Shown one piece after another: positions 40,093-60,676 of a stretch of DNA of 64,000 nucleotides (position 1 is the stretch's first letter; every line of letters begins with the position of its first letter). Source of the DNA: an uncultured Rickettsiales bacterium (lineage in GTDB: Bacteria > Pseudomonadota > Alphaproteobacteria > Rickettsiales > JABDBP01); contig CAYVHI010000002.1 of the NCBI GenBank assembly GCA_964450945.1, positions 904 to 64,903 on the forward strand. The letters are read 5' to 3'. The translations under genes and the position numbers were made by a program. Below the pieces are notes generated by a model. It was not told the origin of the DNA. It was given only the letters and a program-made list of their open reading frames with translations, and searched no databases.

Positions 40093-40114
40093 TATAAACG
40101 ATTATAATTAATTA

Positions 40115-40204
40115 GTTATTACGTCGTCGTACTTCGAACTCAAACTCAGTCATATATGTTTTAGATATACTCCTTCGTTTTCGTCTTGTACTCCTAGTAA
40201 TAAT
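40115..40204. repeat. Hairpin repeat family copy A
   Basis: GTTATTACGTCGTCGTACTTCGAACTC...CATATATGT-tttag-ATATACTCC...TGTACTCCTAGTAATAA. The first 26 nt are near-identical to copy B. Confidence 0.7.
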
Positions 40205-40220
40205 TTAACTATAATCAGTT

Positions 40221-50015: not shown

Positions 50016-50345
50016 ATGTTAAGCAATAAACTAGAAACTAATCTTTCCTTACTTTGGAAAGGTACGACAATAGCGCTCATAGCTGCTGTTTTTGTATTAA
50101 TACCAGAAATGGCTTACGCAATAGCTGATTTTGATACTAAACTTTGCGACGTACAAAACGCAATTCTTGGTACACCAGCTAAAGTTATAGCTACCCTTGC
50201 CATCATATTCTTAGGCATCGGTGCATTCTTTGGTAAATTAAACTGGGGTACTGCATTACTTTTTGCAGCAGGTATTATAGCCGTATTTGCTTCTGTAAAA
50301 GTAGTAGAATTCCTTGATAGCAGCGGTGTTGCTAGTACATGTTAG
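50016..50345 (+). CDS. virB2: VirB2/TrbC-type T4SS pilin
   Basis: 109 aa. Long leader ending AYA, then LCDVQNAILGTPAKVIATLAIIFLGIGAFFGK..WGTALLFAAGIIAVFAS. This two-helix pilin layout parallels Agrobacterium VirB2. AGGAG SD. Confidence 0.7.
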   Translation: MLSNKLETNLSLLWKGTTIALIAAVFVLIPEMAYAIADFDTKLCDVQNAILGTPAKVIATLAIIFLGIGAFFGKLNWGTALLFAAGIIAVFASVKVVEFLDSSGVASTC

Positions 50346-50395
50346 AGTAAAACTATTTAACATGATGAAAAAAGGAATGCTATTAAAAAATAGTA

Positions 50396-52804
50396 ATGAT
50401 GACAAAAACTAATGATGCGAAAAGGGATGGAGTCAGGGTTGATATAAATATTTCTGATTTCATCCCTTTTGCATGTCATTATAACCCTCACACAATACTC
50501 ACAAAGAACGGCGAATTACTACAGACTATAAAAATAGTTGGATTCGCTGCCGAAAATATAAGCAATAAAAAAGAAGATAATAAAAAACGGACCTTAAGAG
50601 GCTCGGTAAGGAAAGCTATTCAGACAGGCATTGATAATGATGAATATGCTATATGGTTTCATACCGTAAGAAGGAAAAAGAAACTTTCTGCCGAAGGCGA
50701 ATACAGCGACCAGTTCTCAAAATATACCAATAGTGCCTGGCGCAAAAGGCATGACTGGGATCATAAATATGTTAACGAGCTTTATATAACTATAATAAGG
50801 GAAGGAGAGTCATTTTCTTTCGAAAGTTATGCCGACTATATAAAAACTTCATCTTATAAGGTGCAAAAAAAGGCAAAGAACCTCTTTCTTGAAAAGATAT
50901 ACGATGAACTTGATGAGGTTGTAAAAAAAGTAGTTCAGTCACTTTCAGATTTTGGTGCAAAACGTCTTTCCATGTTTGAATATAAAGGAGTTTTTTATTC
51001 AGAAAACTTAAGGTTTCTAAGTAAAATCATCAACTTTGCTGAATATAATTTTCCGGTTAAGGAGCAGGATTTATCTCACTATCTTCCTATAAACAAAGTT
51101 TCTTTTGGTTTTAATGCCCTGGAAGTAAAAGGTGCCAATGAAAAACATTTTGCTGGTATATTATCAGTAAAGGAATACCACGAAGTATCGGCAAATGCCA
51201 TAGACACATTCTTGCAGTTGCCGTTTGAATTTATCCTGACAGAAACAGTGGATTTCATTAACAGGGAAAAGGCCTTAAAAGGATTTGAGTATCAAAAGTA
51301 TATTTTAAATCTAAGCCAGGATAAGCATTTTTCTGAAATATCTGGGATAACTGAAATAATAAATAGCGATAAAGGAAGAGTTACGGATTTTGGTGAGCAC
51401 CAGATAAGTATAATGGTTATTGAAGACCATTTGAAATTACTGGAATCAGAAATCAATAAAATGCAGGAAGTTTTAGCCACGTTAGGTATACTTTCGGTAA
51501 GGGAAGATATTATGATGGAAGATTGTTTCTGGGCACAGCTTCCGGGCAACTTCTCATTCATAAGGAGGCTGACACCTATAAATACCAACAGGATGGGTGG
51601 CTTTGCCTCACTTTATAATTTTCCTGCCGGTAAACTTACCAACAACCACTGGGGTCCGGCAGTCACAATTTTTTATACCGCAGCCGGAACGCCTTATTTC
51701 TTCAATTTCCATGTAGATGATAATGGGCATACGGCGATAATCGGACCATTCGGCGCCGGAAAAACGGTGCTAATGAATTTCATGCTCTCAGAAGCAAGAA
51801 AATATAATAGCAAGCTTTTCTTTTTTGACCAGATGCGTGCTTCGGAAATTTTTATCCGCGCTATTGGCGGCAAATATGTTTCTTTTGAAGAAACTAAAAA
51901 TAAGTATTTGCCAATTCCAAAAATGAATCCTCTGTTGCTTGCTGAGAATGAGGAAAATATAAAATTCCTGAAAGCCTGGCTGCAATATCTTGTTTCCAGC
52001 TCTGATAACGGGAATGAAGATGAAACAATAAAAGAAAGGCTGGTGGAAATTGTTAAAATAATATTTGCTCTACCCGCACAGGAGAGGAAACTTTCACAAG
52101 TCAGGGACCTTTTTGAAAAGATGGATATGGCAAAACAGGCGGCGGCTCTTGAGGTCTGGTATGGTTCCGGCAGATATTCATACCTGTTTGATAATGATGA
52201 TGACGACTTGAATATTGCCCATATCCAGGGTTTTGATATGACGTTTTTGGTAAAGGAAGGAAAGCCTCTTGGCCCTGTGCTATCTTATTTATTCCATAGA
52301 ATAAGGGAAAAGCTGGATGGTGAACCAACAATAATAGTACTGGATGAAGCATGGTCACTTATTGATAATGCAATCTTTGCCCCGCACATTTCCGAGTGGC
52401 TTGATTTTTTCCGGGAAAGAAATGCTATGGTTATTTTTGCAACAGAAAGCGTTGAAGATGCAAGTAAAAGCAAAATCACAACTTCAATAACCAGCAAGCT
52501 GGCAACAAGGATATTCCTACCCAATCAGTATGCCACTGGCGCTTATAAAAAGGTTTTCGGCCTTAACCATGTAGAATTTGATCTCCTTAACATGATGAGT
52601 AAGAAGCGCCGCAGCTTCCTCTTAAAGCATGGTGAGGATGCCGTGGTTGCCGAACTTGATCTTAGCGGACTTGATGAAATAATATCTATATTGTCTGGTA
52701 CGCCGGAAAACATTAAGATAATGGAAGGGATTATGAATGAAGTTGGTGAAACCGTTGATAAATGGTTACCTGCCTTTATATTCAAGAAAAAAGCAAAAAA
52801 ATGA
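50396..52804 (+). CDS. virB4: T4SS ATPase VirB4
   Basis: 802 aa. N-terminal SDFIPFACHYNPHTILTKNGELLQT, Walker A GPFGAGKT, Walker B IIVLDEAW. Confidence 0.93.
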   Translation: MMTKTNDAKRDGVRVDINISDFIPFACHYNPHTILTKNGELLQTIKIVGFAAENISNKKEDNKKRTLRGSVRKAIQTGIDNDEYAIWFHTVRRKKKLSAEGEYSDQFSKYTNSAWRKRHDWDHKYVNELYITIIREGESFSFESYADYIKTSSYKVQKKAKNLFLEKIYDELDEVVKKVVQSLSDFGAKRLSMFEYKGVFYSENLRFLSKIINFAEYNFPVKEQDLSHYLPINKVSFGFNALEVKGANEKHFAGILSVKEYHEVSANAIDTFLQLPFEFILTETVDFINREKALKGFEYQKYILNLSQDKHFSEISGITEIINSDKGRVTDFGEHQISIMVIEDHLKLLESEINKMQEVLATLGILSVREDIMMEDCFWAQLPGNFSFIRRLTPINTNRMGGFASLYNFPAGKLTNNHWGPAVTIFYTAAGTPYFFNFHVDDNGHTAIIGPFGAGKTVLMNFMLSEARKYNSKLFFFDQMRASEIFIRAIGGKYVSFEETKNKYLPIPKMNPLLLAENEENIKFLKAWLQYLVSSSDNGNEDETIKERLVEIVKIIFALPAQERKLSQVRDLFEKMDMAKQAAALEVWYGSGRYSYLFDNDDDDLNIAHIQGFDMTFLVKEGKPLGPVLSYLFHRIREKLDGEPTIIVLDEAWSLIDNAIFAPHISEWLDFFRERNAMVIFATESVEDASKSKITTSITSKLATRIFLPNQYATGAYKKVFGLNHVEFDLLNMMSKKRRSFLLKHGEDAVVAELDLSGLDEIISILSGTPENIKIMEGIMNEVGETVDKWLPAFIFKKKAKK

Positions 52805-54324
52805 AAAACCGCAGCGTAAAATTACTTATTCTTTTTCTGGCACTTGCCTGCCCTGCGATAGTTTATGCTGCCTGCACGTTCCCTATTTCACTTAATGACT
52901 GTGCTTTTAGTTTTGTTGACCCGGCAACAGGGGAAACAAAATACCAGATCTTGTTTTCAATACTCTGCCGTGTTCAGTATGCCCTTGGTGGCGCTGTTTT
53001 CCAGATGTATCAGGCGATAGAAACCAGGGTTGCCACGCCGGTCAAGGTTTTCGGTACGCTATATATCATATTTTTTTCCGGTGCTTATTTAATGGGACTT
53101 ATTAAGCAGGAAGCAAAGCTGAGCCAATTCGTAATACACATTGTGAAGCTGACCCTGGTTATGATGTTTGCCACCAACCACTGCTTCTTCTTTGATTATA
53201 TTTACACATTGTTCATGGGCGGCATGAATGCTATAGCCCTTATGGCCTTCAGCGGGCTTCCAGGTACACCGCCTGTACTGGGTGCCGGTTCAAGCCCTGC
53301 GGAAATAATCGCCAGGAGCCAGATAATAGGAAATATTGACGTTGCCTTTAATAGCATTATCAGCATACAGAGCATATTCGCCATTATCGTGCTGATTATT
53401 TTCTTCCTTTTAAGCCCCGGCGGCATAATAATTTCTGTCCTACTTTCAGCCGGCACCATTTATATATTCTATGCCTTTGTGAAGCTGTTCATAACTTTTG
53501 CCATCGCCATCATCAGCCTTACATTTGCGATGATTTTCACCCCGGTTTTCATGATATTTGTTCTATTCGAGCAGACGAGGGATCTTTTCTACAACTGGCT
53601 TTCCCTGCTTTTCACTTATGCCATGCAGCCGATAATCATCCTTTTCTACCTTGTTCTCATGGGCCAGATAATGGATATAAGTTTCATACTTAAGGGGCTT
53701 ACCTGCCCAAGCGCCGCAGACGCTGCTGCTACGGATGCCTGCCTGGCAGCCTTCAGGGCGGATGCCTGTGTTGGCACGCCGGTAGTTCCTGACCCTAACG
53801 CCATAATAGTGCCTTACTGCTGGAAAGTGCTTCCGACATTCATTACATTCTTCCAATGGTCATTCTTTCAAATCAAGCCGGGGATGACCTTTGATACACC
53901 GGTTACTTTCGTTATACCAGGCAACCCGCCACAGAATGTGAACATGCCGGCTTTCGCCGCTATTACCGCGCTTTGTTTCTGCTGGCTGGTGGCCGCATTC
54001 ACCGCCATAGAATTCTGCAAGATAGTGCCTGAACTGGCGCAGCGCCTTGGTACTACGCAGGCCCTTCTGAAACCACCAGGTATTGGCAATATCAGTCCAG
54101 GTGTTAATCCAAAAACTGGTGAGTTTGATAGACTTTCTATCGAAGGTGGTAACGTTATTGTTCCGGGATTTACTGCTGGGTATGCCTCAACAACAAGCGT
54201 CAATCAGTGGCGGGATGCACTTTTAAGTAAATTGGGTGGCGCGTGGCCAAAAATTATAAAAGCAACGGATAGTGGTGCGGCCCGCAAAGGAGTAAGCGAC
54301 ATGATGGACAAGCTGAAGAAATAA
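52801..54324 (+). CDS. virB6: T4SS inner-membrane protein VirB6/TrbL family
   Basis: Start at MKNRSVK (ATGA overlap with the virB4 stop). Signal-like N-terminus and multiple TMs with a central Trp-containing region. The position after virB4 matches Rickettsiales rvh loci. Confidence 0.8.
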   Translation: MKNRSVKLLILFLALACPAIVYAACTFPISLNDCAFSFVDPATGETKYQILFSILCRVQYALGGAVFQMYQAIETRVATPVKVFGTLYIIFFSGAYLMGLIKQEAKLSQFVIHIVKLTLVMMFATNHCFFFDYIYTLFMGGMNAIALMAFSGLPGTPPVLGAGSSPAEIIARSQIIGNIDVAFNSIISIQSIFAIIVLIIFFLLSPGGIIISVLLSAGTIYIFYAFVKLFITFAIAIISLTFAMIFTPVFMIFVLFEQTRDLFYNWLSLLFTYAMQPIIILFYLVLMGQIMDISFILKGLTCPSAADAAATDACLAAFRADACVGTPVVPDPNAIIVPYCWKVLPTFITFFQWSFFQIKPGMTFDTPVTFVIPGNPPQNVNMPAFAAITALCFCWLVAAFTAIEFCKIVPELAQRLGTTQALLKPPGIGNISPGVNPKTGEFDRLSIEGGNVIVPGFTAGYASTTSVNQWRDALLSKLGGAWPKIIKATDSGAARKGVSDMMDKLKK

Positions 54325-54434
54325 AAACCCTTCCCACCTGTTTTAATCATTATATTTCAATATATTACCCGTATATAATTCATTCCTGAAAAATGCTATA
54401 ATTGATATGGTTTTCCATGGTTTGTGTATTTAAT

Positions 54435-54451
54435 AAGGCGTAAGCCTTTTT
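54435..54451 (+). terminator. Weak hairpin plus T-run after virB6
   Basis: AAGGC-gtaa-GCCTT followed by TTT. The stem is only 5 bp. Confidence 0.3.
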
Positions 54452-54472
54452 GAAATATAGTTCCTGGTAAGC

Positions 54473-54512
54473 GTGGCCTATTTTAAAGTGCAGACGTTCT
54501 GCACTTGGCCAC
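54473..54512. other. Two-tier hairpin at the low-GC/high-GC transition
   Basis: Outer GTGGCC/GGCCAC (6 bp) and inner AGTGCAGA-cgt-TCTGCACT (8 bp perfect). Confidence 0.5.
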
Positions 54513-54649
54513 TTAAATCTCCATCCGCTTTCGCCCTTCCTAAGGTTACTACGCGTAACATACCTTGGGAAAAAAAGCAGATGGTATAAATGTGCGGCCT
54601 GGAGCGGTTCCAGGCTATCCGCGTCCCGATTCCTCGAGAGGACTTAAAG

Positions 54650-55207
54650 ATGTCTCTCTTTGGTGACGATGAGGCACGAGAAAGAGATCAGCAAAAAGCT
54701 GATGCTGAACGAGAGCGGCAAAGGAAGAAAGGTGAAGATGAGGAAGCTGCTTGGAACGACCGCGAGAAGCGGGCATCGTCAGGCGGTGGCAGTAGCGACG
54801 GTGGTGAGAGGCCAACGCGAGGTGATGGTAACGGCGGTGGTTGCGTTACTACTGTTCTTGCAATCATTCTGGCGCTGTTCCTCATCGGTCTGGTGACTCA
54901 GAGGATGCAGCAGCCGCCCGACAACCCCAACGCCGTGTACAAAACGGCGGAGGAGGTGAAGGCAGGGTACCTGCTCTTCACCGGCGGGACGGTTATCCCG
55001 CTGAAGGACACGAAAAAACTCCGCGAAGATGGTCTGAACATCATCTTTGAGGTGACCACGGAACACGGAAAGTTCCGGGTAGTGTTCGAGAACAAGTACC
55101 GGAATGGCTTCCGGGTGGACAGGATGAGATTTGAACCACCTGACGGTACCTACGACAACACCAACACTTGGTGGGTCGAGAACGACCCGAGGATCCCGAG
55201 GAAGTGA
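54650..55207 (+). CDS. Compositionally foreign bitopic membrane protein (charged Gly-rich N-terminus, one TM, ~100-aa C-terminal domain)
   Basis: Start at MSLFGDDE with GAGAGGA SD; the track ORF starts at 54590. TM is VTTVLAIILALFLIGLVT. Codons in the second half are mostly G/C-ending (CTG, AAC, GAC, ACC, TTC, AAG), unlike all neighbours. Confidence 0.6.
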   Translation: MSLFGDDEARERDQQKADAERERQRKKGEDEEAAWNDREKRASSGGGSSDGGERPTRGDGNGGGCVTTVLAIILALFLIGLVTQRMQQPPDNPNAVYKTAEEVKAGYLLFTGGTVIPLKDTKKLREDGLNIIFEVTTEHGKFRVVFENKYRNGFRVDRMRFEPPDGTYDNTNTWWVENDPRIPRK

Positions 55208-55233
55208 AACTCCTCTGGGGCACATGACAAAAA

Positions 55234-55285
55234 ACAACACCCTCTTTTCGCGTAAGAGAGGGTGTTGTGCTTTCTAGCTTTTTTT
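55234..55285 (+). terminator. Rho-independent terminator after the high-GC gene
   Basis: ACAACACCCTCT-tttcgcgtaag-AGAGGGTGTTGT 12-bp perfect stem, then GCTTTCTAGCTTTTTTT. Confidence 0.75.
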
Positions 55286-55395
55286 AATCTGCTTCCTACT
55301 TCGTCGTACTTTAGGTTTCGGTGTGCTCATGTATCTTTAATACACTCCGCGCACCTTGCCTAGTACTCCTCGTATTAAGCAGATTAAAAAAAGCT
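55276..55395. repeat. Hairpin repeat family copy C with 19-bp perfect terminal inverted repeats
   Basis: AGCTTTTTTTAATCTGCTT (55276-55294) is the exact reverse complement of AAGCAGATTAAAAAAAGCT (55377-55395). The core TACTTCGTCGTACTTT..GTGTGCTCATGTAT-ctttaa-TACACTCCGCGC..CCTAGTACTCC matches copies A and B. Confidence 0.75.
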
Positions 55396-55411
55396 ATATC
55401 CTGCTTTTATA

Positions 55412-55505
55412 TCCGGGTCGCTCTGCGCTAAAGCGCAACCGCTCCCACGTAATAGTTTATTATTTTCCGGGTCGCTCTGAACTTCGTTCAACCGCTCCCG
55501 CGTAA
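55412..55505. repeat. Two tandem ~40-nt hairpin units with conserved flanks and covarying central stems
   Basis: Unit 1 (55412-55452): TCCGGGTCGCTC-TGCGCTaaAGCGCA-ACCGCTCCCACGTAA. Unit 2 (55466-55505): TCCGGGTCGCTC-TGAACttcGTTCA-ACCGCTCCCGCGTAA. Confidence 0.7.
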
Positions 55506-55506
55506 C

Positions 55507-56793
55507 TCACTCCACTGAAAAATAGGCGAGATCCAAAAACGTGAAACGGTTACGCAGGAAAAGCGAATGCATTATCGCCTGGTGATACCACTCTGGCTCC
55601 CAGCCTATATGGGCAGCATCAGTCGAGCAGCCTGCCGCCTCAAGATAGCTTTTAAGTTTTTGTTTAGGAATGCCGACAGCAGAAATTTTCCCAACAATAT
55701 CTTTCCAGTCCTTCGCCAGCATATCATTAAGTTCATCAATCTTTTGCGGCGATGGCCATTTTTTCTTTGCCTCCGCTATTGAACCCTTGCCCACCTGCTC
55801 ACCGAAATATTGCAGCAGCTTTTCTTCATCAAGCGGTATATGGGTTAGTTTCAGCGAAGGGGCTGAAAGCATATCCTCCTGCACGGCGGCCATCGCAAGT
55901 GTGGTTATGCCTATCTGCTCGCCGTGGAATGAAGTGCTGGGAAAAAGCATCTCCATGAAATGGGCAATCAGGTGTTCGCCCTGGCTTGCCGGATAACTGC
56001 CACCGGAAATGAACATGCCAATTCCCGAAAGCACAAGACAGAGGCAGAGAAGTTGCATCACCTCCGCATCACCACCCATTAAACCTTTTGCATTTTCCAT
56101 TAGTGGATTTTCATATTTCTCAAGAAGGACAAACGGCGCAGTCTTATATGGCGTGCCAAGAAGCAGATGGGAAAGCAGCCAGTCACTCTGCGCAGTCGGG
56201 CGGCAGAGCATATCACCAAGCCCGCTTCTTATAAGGCGTGCCGGTGCCTTCATCATGACATCGATATCCATGAAGACCGCGAGAGGCGGATTTGCAGTAA
56301 GCGAAGATTTAAAATTATCAACAATGATTGAAGCGCTAGCCGAACAATATCCATTCATGGAAGGCGCGGTGGCAAAAACCACATAAGGCTTTCTTGCCTT
56401 ATAAGACGCATATTTGCATAGATCATTGATTGTGCCGCTGCCGACCGCAACTATGCCATCATAATCCTTCGACTTCTGCTCTATGGCGCCGGCAGTTGCC
56501 TCATCACAAACAGGATTTCCATCCGACATGAAAGCGGTTACCTGGTATTTTCTTTCCAATACCTTGAAAAGCTTTTCACCCGCCGCCGCAAAAGTATTTT
56601 TATCGCAGACAATGAGCAGGCTCTTGCCAATCGCCAGTTTGGCAAGATACTCATCTGCGTTTTCTATTACGCCCCTGTCAATGACAATGGAACGTATCGG
56701 CAACCTGACGGGAGAACCCGTATCAGGATCATTCCAGGTGTCAGAAAGCAACTGTCCTAAAATAGAAGAATTCTTCATCACTACTTTCGCCAA
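55507..56793 (-). CDS. Iron-containing alcohol dehydrogenase superfamily, glycerol-1-phosphate dehydrogenase-like
   Basis: 428 aa. GSGTINDLCKY nucleotide-binding motif, TAPSMNGY, and the conserved His region GEHLIAHFME. Confidence 0.65.
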   Translation of the reverse strand: MAKVVMKNSSILGQLLSDTWNDPDTGSPVRLPIRSIVIDRGVIENADEYLAKLAIGKSLLIVCDKNTFAAAGEKLFKVLERKYQVTAFMSDGNPVCDEATAGAIEQKSKDYDGIVAVGSGTINDLCKYASYKARKPYVVFATAPSMNGYCSASASIIVDNFKSSLTANPPLAVFMDIDVMMKAPARLIRSGLGDMLCRPTAQSDWLLSHLLLGTPYKTAPFVLLEKYENPLMENAKGLMGGDAEVMQLLCLCLVLSGIGMFISGGSYPASQGEHLIAHFMEMLFPSTSFHGEQIGITTLAMAAVQEDMLSAPSLKLTHIPLDEEKLLQYFGEQVGKGSIAEAKKKWPSPQKIDELNDMLAKDWKDIVGKISAVGIPKQKLKSYLEAAGCSTDAAHIGWEPEWYHQAIMHSLFLRNRFTFLDLAYFSVE

Positions 56794-60548: not shown

Positions 60549-60551
60549 TTT

Positions 60552-60642
60552 GGTTATTACGTCGTCGTATTTCGGACTCGCTGTGCTCATGTATGTCAGG
60601 ATACACTGCGCCCAGCTCACCTCATACTCCCTAGTACTAACC
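60552..60642. repeat. Hairpin repeat family copy B
   Basis: GGTTATTACGTCGTCGTATTTCGGACTCGCTGTGCTCATGTAT-gtcagg-ATACACTGCGCCCAGCTC..ACTCCCTAGTACTAACC. Lies between tmk and holB. Confidence 0.7.
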
Positions 60643-60676
60643 CAAACATAAATCGCAGTATAACATTGGGTATAAA

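Follow-up and report, generated by a model that had tools for sequence, protein, structure and literature searches.

An orphan reading frame of atypical composition between virB6 and an Fe-ADH-like gene, probably gained in one lineage of Rickettsiales

A 64,000-nt stretch of DNA from an uncultured Rickettsiales bacterium (here called the window) carries, on the 3' side of virB6, an open reading frame for a 185-residue protein (54650–55207, plus strand) that has no detectable family. We propose that this is probably, though by a modest measure of confidence, a lineage-specific orphan gene, situated in DNA that was gained between virB6 and an Fe-ADH-like gene, a convergent pair that ancestrally abutted one another.

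Evidence for this comes from an empty site in a metagenomic relative, L047. Eleven genes are collinear between this relative and the window, at 27–76% amino-acid identity. Its gene order is YjgF-virB2-virB4-virB6-FeADH-SLT2-RlpA-...-MetRS, and its virB6 and FeADH genes overlap by 4 nt. In the window, virB6 (TrbL/VirB6, 520 aa; Pfam PF04610, E 4.9e-10) occupies 52762–54324 on the plus strand, in the same position as in L047. The Fe-ADH or glycerol-1-phosphate-dehydrogenase-like gene (428 aa; Pfam PF13685, E 1.1e-36) occupies 55507–56793 on the minus strand; it is convergent with the ORF, also has the same position in L047, and is 45% identical to the L047 orthologue. The overlap in L047 thus marks the whole of 54325–55506, about 1.18 kb, as extra DNA in the present lineage. 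A tblastn search of L047 with the ORF found no counterpart, and the ORF is likewise absent from all 80 virB4 loci. With L047 as the single outgroup, the extra DNA was probably gained here, although it may instead have been lost in L047.

The original prediction had allowed for a chimeric assembly. A chimeric contig, or contaminating DNA of some GC-rich organism, would account for the jump in composition described below, and for that alone. Five independent Logan contigs (SRR12808458, SRR12822862, SRR12822863, SRR12816582 and SRR9903539) match the window at 100% identity over 54145–55439, across virB6, the ORF, the repeats and both junctions, and both flanks consist of genes that have the same order in L047. 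The five identical assemblies exclude a chimera, and we give this explanation practically no weight. Three independent assemblies break at 55439, within the REP-like units described below.

The extra DNA begins with an AT-rich spacer (54325–54472, 30% G+C), which is the lowest-GC part of the intergenic region and is missing in L047. Next, on the plus strand at 54473–54512, is the two-tier hairpin that had been predicted there (GTGGCC...GTGCAGA-CGT-TCTGCAC..GGCCAC). It does fold strongly, at -22 kcal/mol with a z-score of -4.1; none of 200 shuffled sequences folds as well, and it is unique in the window. No T-run follows it; it may mark where the virB2-B4-B6 transcript ends, or may act as an insulator. 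The 18 nt at 54476–54493 match the final six codons of Fe-ADH in inverted orientation at 15 of 18 positions. For this region such a match is no better than chance; it does not extend, and was discarded. Between the ORF and the Fe-ADH-like gene there is a second hairpin, with a 15-bp stem (55234–55268, -24.6 kcal/mol, z -5.4), which was originally described as a strong terminator. The hairpin is stable, but by the criteria of a terminator scan it scores on the minus strand only, the plus-strand T-run beginning 10 nt past the stem. We regard it as a likely bidirectional terminator. In the explanation that we prefer, the ORF would be transcribed alone, as a monocistronic unit, parted from the virB transcript by the hairpin at 54473–54512 and from Fe-ADH by that at 55234–55268.

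The second hairpin is followed by a palindromic element of 122 nt (55275–55396), MITE- or RPE-like in form, with 25-nt terminal inverted repeats. The arms are 92% complementary (20 nt perfectly so), and the element folds at -49.7 kcal/mol with a z-score of -10.9. Related copies are found at 40112–40205 and 60550–60645. A copy other than that at 55275–55396 sits in a second spacer that L047 lacks, g59901 and g60677 having a 4-nt overlap there. A repeat with terminal inverted repeats had been correctly recognised at this place, but it is one copy of a family scattered through the organism's own genome, and is not part of a foreign segment. Two REP-like units (TCCGGGTCGCTCTG-N9/10-CAACCGCTCCCRCGTAA), spaced by 54 nt, follow at 55412–55505. 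The palindromic and REP-like repeats would represent separate insertions of the genome's own repeat families into the newly opened spacer. No integrase, transposase, tRNA, att site, border direct repeats or target-site duplication was found in 54200–55700.

As first reported, eight overlapping ORFs reach 60 aa or more in this region when both strands are counted (205, 66, 78, 65, 153, 69, 65 and 60 aa). The longest is an alternative call of the orphan ORF, from 54590 rather than 54650. A Shine-Dalgarno-like GAGAGGA, read from the sequence on the plus strand at 54636–54642, lies 7 nt 5' of the ATG at 54650, which is where it had been noted. By eye, TGGTATAAA (54582–54590, plus strand) is a candidate extended -10 element; if real, it overlaps the ATG at 54590 and so argues against the 205-aa start. 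A sigma-70 promoter scan of 54200–55700 gave no site, at this candidate or elsewhere. The gene callers differ on the N-terminal frame: one call is a single product of 205 aa, the other a product of 100 aa together with one of 75 aa from a different frame. When the segment was simulated as a first-order Markov sequence, 2.6% of the simulations contained 205 or more consecutive codons without a stop (p ~0.026). For DNA as GC-rich as this, the length of the ORF is barely out of the ordinary, and by itself it argues only weakly for a gene.

The ORF has a G+C content of 55.7%, and the segment 54473–55285 one of 53.3%, compared with 40.9% for the window. The most GC-rich 600-nt interval of the 64 kb falls on the ORF region (z 3.85), at a value reached by 0.1% of intervals of this size. 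To this extent the segment is foreign in composition, as had been claimed, but the flanking genes have 46.0% G+C (virB6) and 47.7% (Fe-ADH-like), and not the 35–42% originally estimated. The GC3 of the ORF is 0.64, against 0.374±0.053 for the other ORFs of the window, and on a CAI-like index calculated against the window genes the ORF scores 0.52–0.60, against 0.729±0.020 for the other genes.

This anomaly is not spread evenly along the ORF. The first ~60 codons have a GC3 of approximately 0.42–0.46, near the value of the window's other genes, and the GC-richness of the N-terminal third comes from codon positions 1 and 2 (Gly/Ala/Arg/Asp/Glu codons; GC1 ~0.7). GC3 then jumps within the ORF, at ~54830–54875, and the anomaly at silent sites is confined to the transmembrane (TM) helix and C-terminal domain, from ~54830 onwards. 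Over 54905–55207, GC3 is 0.79. G/C-ending codons dominate the second half of the ORF, in agreement with the original prediction, with a CAI-like index of 0.52. A strong period-3 signal runs across 54875–55207 (GC3 0.7–0.9, GC2 0.23–0.47). We suggest that a GC-richer source recently supplied the TM and C-terminal part, if not more of the gene, and that the codon usage of this part has not yet drifted to that of the genome. It should be added that the N-terminal third, which is not anomalous at silent sites, speaks against the proposed explanation.

The layout of the encoded protein is as predicted: the N-terminus is charged and Gly-rich, a single TM helix follows, and ~100 residues make up the C-terminal part. 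Residues 1–63 (54650–54838, plus strand) include 30 charged residues; they are predicted to form a long helix at 6–43, followed by a Gly/Ser/Asp-rich linker. The single TM helix is GCVTTVLAIILALFLIGLV, at residues 64–84 (54839–54901, plus strand; Kyte-Doolittle 2.73) or, on a narrower delimitation, 64–82. Residues 85–185 (54902–55204, plus strand) make up a β-rich domain, whose GC3 of 0.79 against a GC2 of 0.38 is a strong period-3 coding signal. With one TM helix near the N-terminus the protein is bitopic, and we infer an N-in/C-out orientation. The product would thus be a type II bitopic protein of the inner membrane, with its charged 63-residue N-terminus in the cytoplasm and its β-rich domain of ~100 residues in the periplasm. 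Structure models of the protein are of low confidence, with pLDDT of 58–60. The AF2 single-sequence model (pLDDT 57.6, pTM 0.51) has five to seven antiparallel strands in the C-terminal domain, and when this low-confidence β-meander of ~100 aa was used for a fold search with Foldseek against the PDB and BFVD, nothing was found below an E-value of 0.2.

No family had been recognised for the protein, and none was found in any of our searches. There is no match in Pfam, NCBIfam, PADLOC or PDB sequences, and nothing useful in PHROGs or in a word search of 5.8 billion proteins. Back-translated pattern scans of genomes, metagenomes and viral contigs found no relative of the ORF, tblastn against plasmids and phages and blastn against plasmids gave nothing useful, there is no paralogue within the 64-kb window, and Rfam at a permissive threshold contains nothing relevant. 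An exhaustive HMMER search of 1.84 billion protein representatives returned the protein itself and one match that is probably spurious (P0002, E 8e-9). The match consists of five near-identical repeats that score ~10 bits each over 37 aa; such a sum over near-identical repeats is not independent evidence, and the match was rejected. It also disappears when searched in a six-frame context. PHROG 27516 (E 6e-4) matches just the charged, Gly-rich stretch and the start of the TM helix, and was taken to be compositional. On the basis of these searches, the protein is an ORFan. The original claim of a recent horizontal acquisition thus gains from the empty site in L047 and from the odd codon usage, but neither donor nor homologue was found, and to name a GC-rich bacterium, a virus or the eukaryotic host as the source is for that reason pure inference. 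It is worth adding that the genome collection contains no relative of the window's virB6, and that the closest VirB4 relative is just 52% identical.

The gain of a small orphan gene has to be weighed against other explanations, of which one concerns the scale of the event. The segment of 0.8 kb does not stand as a compositional unit: a maximum-likelihood GC partition of 50–60 kb places the best block at 52840–56744 (~3.9 kb), almost exactly the three genes virB6, ORF and Fe-ADH, the outer two of which have the same order in L047. The anomaly of the ORF is nested in a larger GC-elevated block, and a plain insertion of 0.8 kb may be too simple a description of what happened. Homologous recombination with DNA of a related lineage that had drifted less towards AT could have replaced the whole block, in which case the ORF would already have been in the donor, would be older than it looks, and would be foreign to that donor only. 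In favour of this, virB6 and the Fe-ADH-like gene have the two highest GC3 values (0.50 and 0.49) among the other 54 ORFs, these values fit the flat GC3 of 0.40–0.51 in L047, and the Fe-ADH-like gene has a CAI-like index of 0.662, about 3 SD low. The raised GC3 of these two genes, both of which are present in L047, is not explained by a simple small insertion. On the other side, virB6 has an index of 0.715, inside the range of the window's other genes; boundaries at gene ends are also expected from gene-specific constraints; and there is no donor lineage to point to. The GC3 of the ORF's C-terminal part lies so far above the rest of the block that a second source would still be needed. We consider block replacement a serious possibility, if not a likely one. 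It is also conceivable, but rather improbable, that there is no functional gene here, and that the region is a fragment of foreign GC-rich coding DNA in which the long frame, the N-terminus, the TM-like stretch and the Shine-Dalgarno-like motif are fortuitous. The frequency of such stop-free runs in composition-matched simulations, the permissive DNA implied by eight overlapping ORFs, the lack of a conserved homologue in the protein searches, the disagreement among gene callers and the difference in codon usage between the two halves of the ORF would all be expected of such a fragment. They have to be set against the facts that the open frame is the frame with the period-3 signal, that the ATG has a well-spaced Shine-Dalgarno-like motif, that the TM helix is very strong, that two highly significant hairpins bracket the ORF, and that the AF2 model is a coherent β-meander.

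A further explanation gives the ORF a function in the type IV secretion system (T4SS): its product would be an accessory subunit that acts at the inner membrane together with VirB6 and VirB4. It might be a counterpart of VirB8/TrbF or of VirB10, or else a C-terminal extension of VirB6 that became detached and then diverged. The ORF does lie directly 3' of virB6, and its product is bitopic like VirB8. In addition, VirB6 of loci L007–L009 (819–878 aa), which carry the closest VirB4 relatives, has an extension of ~390 aa, rich in Gly/Ser/Asp and Lys/Glu and encoded by the GC-richest part of the gene (0.58–0.67), which is missing from the 520-aa VirB6 of the window. The likeness to VirB8 or VirB10 put forward originally holds for topology, but it goes no further. 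VirB8/TrbF was rejected, with no Pfam hit at E≤0.01 (PF04335) and a score of -2.0 bits against a local VirB8 profile (jackhmmer, 26 related loci, scored with --max), in which the TM helix alone was aligned. For VirB10/TrbI (PF03743) Pfam gives no hit, a Pro-rich region is missing, and a protein of this length is much too small. VirB7 and entry-exclusion lipoproteins (TrbK, Eex) were rejected, in that Pfam gives no VirB7 hit, the hydrophobic segment starts at residue 64, and Cys65 comes before it and does not follow an h-region, as the lipobox Cys of a signal peptide would. As to a C-terminal VirB6 module, the virB6 stop codon, 325 nt of DNA and the strong hairpin stand between virB6 and the ORF, and blastp against the VirB6 extensions gives E-values of at least 0.3, although these extensions are not conserved among themselves. 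The T4SS locus of the window is a virB2-virB4-virB6 islet only. It ends at virB6, as in rvh-type systems, where virB8-B11 and virD4 are in a separate islet (PMC2653234), and the position of the ORF next to virB6 thus has little functional weight. The same islet in L047 has no added gene behind virB6, and a T4SS subunit would leave the GC3 of 0.79 unexplained. We therefore find this explanation unlikely, and very unlikely in the more specific version in which the ORF is the first member of a new family, a membrane-anchored protein with a periplasmic β-domain in a deep-branching, rvh-type alphaproteobacterium, perhaps serving as a lineage-specific T4SS adaptor or exclusion factor and perhaps originating from a GC-rich host or co-resident. 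Nothing found here links the ORF to the secretion system. In the explanation favoured here, the orphan gene would encode an accessory envelope protein and not a core part of the T4SS; L047 has the same virB2-B4-B6 islet without it.

If the ORF is expressed, it provides a clean and datable case of orphan-gene gain, with an empty-site relative at hand, in a poorly sampled and probably host-associated alphaproteobacterial lineage. The nested GC pattern hints at the recombination-mediated import of a gene block that L047 keeps in the same order. In practical terms, a gene's place beside virB6 should not be taken to mean that it belongs to the T4SS. At present the orphan gene is a curiosity, and opens no long-standing question.

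Among known systems, VirB8/TrbF resembles the ORF product in following directly after virB6 (as a VirB8 of 220–260 aa does in 26 fetched loci), and in its bitopic layout, in which a single TM helix joins the N-terminus, predicted to be cytoplasmic in the ORF product, to a C-terminal domain in the periplasm. It appears to differ in that this domain is an NTF2-like α+β fold of ~150 aa (140–180), whereas that of the ORF product is ~100 aa and is predicted, at low confidence, to be all-β. The putative cytoplasmic part of the ORF product is longer, highly charged and Gly-rich; the product has no sequence relationship to VirB8, and is missing in L047. The C-terminal extensions of VirB6, seen in rvh-type RvhB6 paralogues and in L007–L009, are likewise on the 3' side of the VirB6 core, and have a charged, low-complexity Gly/Ser/Asp composition with a hydrophobic stretch and then a small terminal domain. 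In contrast, the ORF is a gene of its own, with its own start, set apart by the 325 nt and the hairpin, and has no detectable similarity to these extensions, which themselves differ from lineage to lineage.

The palindromic element at 55275–55396 can be compared with Rickettsia palindromic elements and MITE-like repeats, which are also ~100–120 nt long, strongly palindromic, intergenic and dispersed. The comparison is one of form, and here there are three copies in 64 kb, none of them inside genes. The ORF as a whole is closest in character to laterally acquired ORFan islets. Like these, it is short, taxonomically restricted, compositionally atypical and placed between conserved collinear genes, with small mobile repeats adjoining. 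ORFans are more often AT-richer than their genome. The ORF departs from the typical islet in being GC-richer, in having no integrase, tRNA or att site, and in sitting within a larger GC-elevated block of genes that are also present in L047.

The T4SS islet in the window consists of virB2 (50016-50345), virB4 and virB6 (52762-54324, +). In NCBIfam its VirB4 is matched best by PRK13898, an equivalog model for VirB4; FliI belongs to clade 3. The closest VirB4 among 5.8 billion proteins has 52% identity, and the few matches with a named source are alphaproteobacterial or Rickettsiales MAGs. Comparison was made with 80 virB4 loci fetched from metagenomes. In L047 (45% G+C), one of these loci, eleven genes are collinear with those of the window: YjgF(-), virB2, virB4, virB6, Fe-ADH(-), SLT2, RlpA, a further three genes, and MetRS; amino-acid identities range over 27-76% (MetRS 65%, YjgF 76%). 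There, virB6 overlaps Fe-ADH by 4 nt and no intergenic DNA separates the two; by comparison, the window has 1182 nt of extra DNA between them (54325-55506), including an ORF of 185 aa (54650-55207, +). By tblastn the ORF has no match in L047 or in any other fetched virB4 locus. Relative to L047, the gene has been gained, and the insertion is lineage-specific.

The extra DNA starts with an AT-rich spacer, followed by a hairpin (54473-54512; -22 kcal/mol, z -4.1), a leader of about 140 nt with roughly 50% G+C, and the ORF. Beyond it lie a bidirectional hairpin (55234-55268; -24.6 kcal/mol, z -5.4), a palindromic element of 122 nt (55275-55396; -49.7 kcal/mol, z -10.9) and two REP-like units spaced 54 nt apart (55412-55505), of the form TCCGGGTCGCTCTG-N9/10-CAACCGCTCCCRCGTAA. 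An 18-nt inverted match (15/18 bases) links the start of the upstream hairpin (54476-54493) to the last six Fe-ADH codons (55510-55527, AYFSVE). It does not extend further, and chance alone would yield about 0.3-0.7 matches of this kind in the region; although its two halves lie at the borders on either side of the extra DNA, it is probably a coincidence.

The computed profile bears out the GC-rich anomaly of the original prediction. The ORF has 55.7% G+C and the segment 54473-55285 has 53.3%, against 40.9% for the window (z = 3.85 for the ORF, a value reached by only 0.1% of windows of the same size), and the maximum of the 64 kb is the 600-nt window from 54601, at 56.2%. GC1/2/3 of the ORF are 0.60/0.44/0.64, while GC3 of the 54 other ORFs is 0.374±0.053 and at most 0.50. 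A CAI-like index calculated against the window genes (0.729±0.020) is 0.60 for its first half and 0.52 for its second. The silent-site anomaly is however uneven, being limited to the TM helix and C-terminal domain. Up to about codon 60, GC3 is 0.42-0.46, near that of the other genes, and the high GC1 (0.72) and GC2 (0.55) arise because Gly, Ala, Arg, Asp and Glu are encoded there; from about 54830 onwards GC3 climbs to 0.63-0.90. The proposed foreign codon usage therefore holds for the latter part only. Half of the arginine codons (50%) are AGR, alongside a mix of G- and C-ending codons; this usage matches no particular host, and is not that of a typical high-GC bacterium either. No donor can be named.

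The GC-rich segment is not an assembly artefact. The 205-aa and 100-aa calls are found on Logan contigs assembled independently from five runs (SRR12808458, SRR12822862, SRR12822863, SRR12816582 and SRR9903539), and all five contigs are 100% identical to the window over virB6, the ORF, the hairpin and the palindromic element. Three of them stop exactly at 55439, within the pair of REP-like units, as expected of a multi-copy repeat, which suggests that many copies of these units are present elsewhere in the genome. The central hairpins of the two units differ in sequence, and both still pair (TGCGC/GCGCA and TGAAC/GTTCA). The palindromic element is one member of a dispersed MITE- or RPE-like family of about 100-120 nt (core CGTCGTCGTAYTT...GTGCTCATGTAT...ATACACT...TACTCC), with further copies at 40112-40205 and 60550-60645. 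Like the copy after the ORF, that at 60550 lies in a spacer that is absent from L047, where the flanking orthologues overlap by 4 nt, so that at least two copies appear to have entered between genes that once overlapped. The repeats are therefore insertions of the genome's own elements, outside any foreign segment.

Residues 1-63 of the protein include 30 charged residues and 11 Gly. AlphaFold2 predicts a long helix at residues 6-43 (pLDDT 83-91), then a Gly/Ser/Asp-rich linker; residues 64-84 form a single TM helix (Kyte-Doolittle 2.73), and residues 85-185 are modelled, at low confidence, as five to seven β-strands forming an antiparallel meander (pLDDT 59.7 for the full length; 57.6 for the C-terminal domain alone, with pTM 0.51). 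A half-charged N-terminus of 63 residues is not plausibly translocated, and we therefore infer an N-in/C-out orientation. As anticipated, no family was recognised: Pfam, NCBIfam, PADLOC and PDB sequence searches returned nothing or nothing significant, the sole PHROG match (E 6e-4) covers only a low-complexity stretch, and Foldseek of the predicted structure against PDB and BFVD gave nothing below E 0.2. Exhaustive HMMER over 1.84 billion representatives returned only the protein itself and P0002, a protein of 529 aa in which 62 aa recur as five near-identical tandem repeats (MDNWQSMDIPLKNTIKLRDELLRIDTSYNTEDGQIRWLTDN...), each scoring about 10 bits over 37 residues. We reject P0002 as a homologue, because a single chance similarity, present five times, enters the summed E-value each time; the repeats probably inflate its score. 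P0002 is encoded in an unrelated MAG (locus L004, 10001-11590; GCA_964466055.1), adjoining AbiEii and GIY-YIG genes.

On balance, the extra DNA probably carries a recently gained orphan gene, which would be transcribed separately from virB6 and Fe-ADH; its product would be a bitopic inner-membrane protein of type II, with a small β-domain facing the periplasm. A non-functional foreign fragment is a live alternative, if a rather improbable one. The length of the ORF alone is weak evidence of a gene, since 205 or more codons in a row without a stop turn up in 2.6% of composition-matched simulations. The eight overlapping ORFs of at least 60 aa, present on both strands as described, arise because third-position G/C in the sense frame gives C/G at the first position of an antisense frame, which bars stops. 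Better coding evidence is the coincidence of a period-3 signal (GC3 0.7-0.9, GC2 0.23-0.47), the predicted SD-like GAGAGGA 7 nt before the ATG at 54650, a very strong TM helix, and the two flanking hairpins, both found where expected, as was the repeat element after the second. Gene calls are split over identical DNA: some give 205 aa from the ATG at 54590, while on two Logan contigs there are 75 aa in the +1 frame (54669-54896, +) plus 100 aa from Met86. This shows that the Gly/Asp/Glu-rich N-terminal half is ambiguous to, or misjudged by, GC3-driven gene finders.

The flanking genes turned out to be richer in G+C than the 35-42% originally estimated. virB6 has 46.0% (GC3 0.50) and the convergent Fe-ADH/G1PDH-like gene (55507-56793, -) 47.7% (GC3 0.49), the top two GC3 values among the 54 other ORFs. 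When the stretch of 50-60 kb is partitioned by maximum likelihood with a single segment, the result is 52840-56744 (3.9 kb; G+C 0.480 inside, 0.386 outside), almost exactly virB6, the ORF and Fe-ADH, so the anomaly is nested: a raised block with its peak in the 3' two-thirds of the ORF. In L047, GC3 is flat (0.40-0.51), with neither virB6 nor Fe-ADH raised above its neighbours, and the rise is therefore a trait of the window's lineage. The whole block was possibly replaced through recombination with a less AT-drifted relative, which would account for an otherwise unexplained rise in virB6 and Fe-ADH. We consider such an import unlikely, though well worth entertaining; it is compatible with a recently gained orphan gene, and would change only its route of arrival.

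Nothing supports a T4SS role of the protein; such a role is possible, but we regard it as very doubtful. The suggested likeness to VirB8 or VirB10 is one of topology, with no match in sequence: the ORF scores -2 bits against a VirB8 profile that was built on 26 fetched loci, and VirB10 is ruled out by the lack of a Pro-rich or TrbI region. The protein also has no lipobox, which rules out VirB7 or an exclusion lipoprotein. In the closest VirB4 relatives (L007-L009), VirB6 has a GC-rich extension, rich in Gly/Ser/Asp and Lys/Glu, that is missing from the 520-aa VirB6 of the window. The ORF as a detached extension finds no support: there is no sequence similarity (E at least 0.3), the extensions are unrelated between lineages, and L047 has neither such an extension nor the ORF. 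VirB6 has 590 aa in L047 and 819-878 aa in L007-L009, and other loci have arrays of three paralogues of about 500 aa.

The arrangement YjgF(-), virB2 (109 aa), virB4, virB6 (50016-54324 in the window) is kept in L007-L009 and L047, where VirB4 identity is only 36-52%, and no separate virB3 ORF is seen between virB2 and virB4. In Rickettsia, the rvh T4SS genes also lie in separate islets, one holding virB3-virB4-virB6 and another virB7-B11/virD4 (PMC2653234); virB8 is therefore not to be expected after virB6 in the window. The gain of an islet or ORFan is an ordinary kind of event, seen here in an unusual lineage and in an unusual, GC-rich direction.
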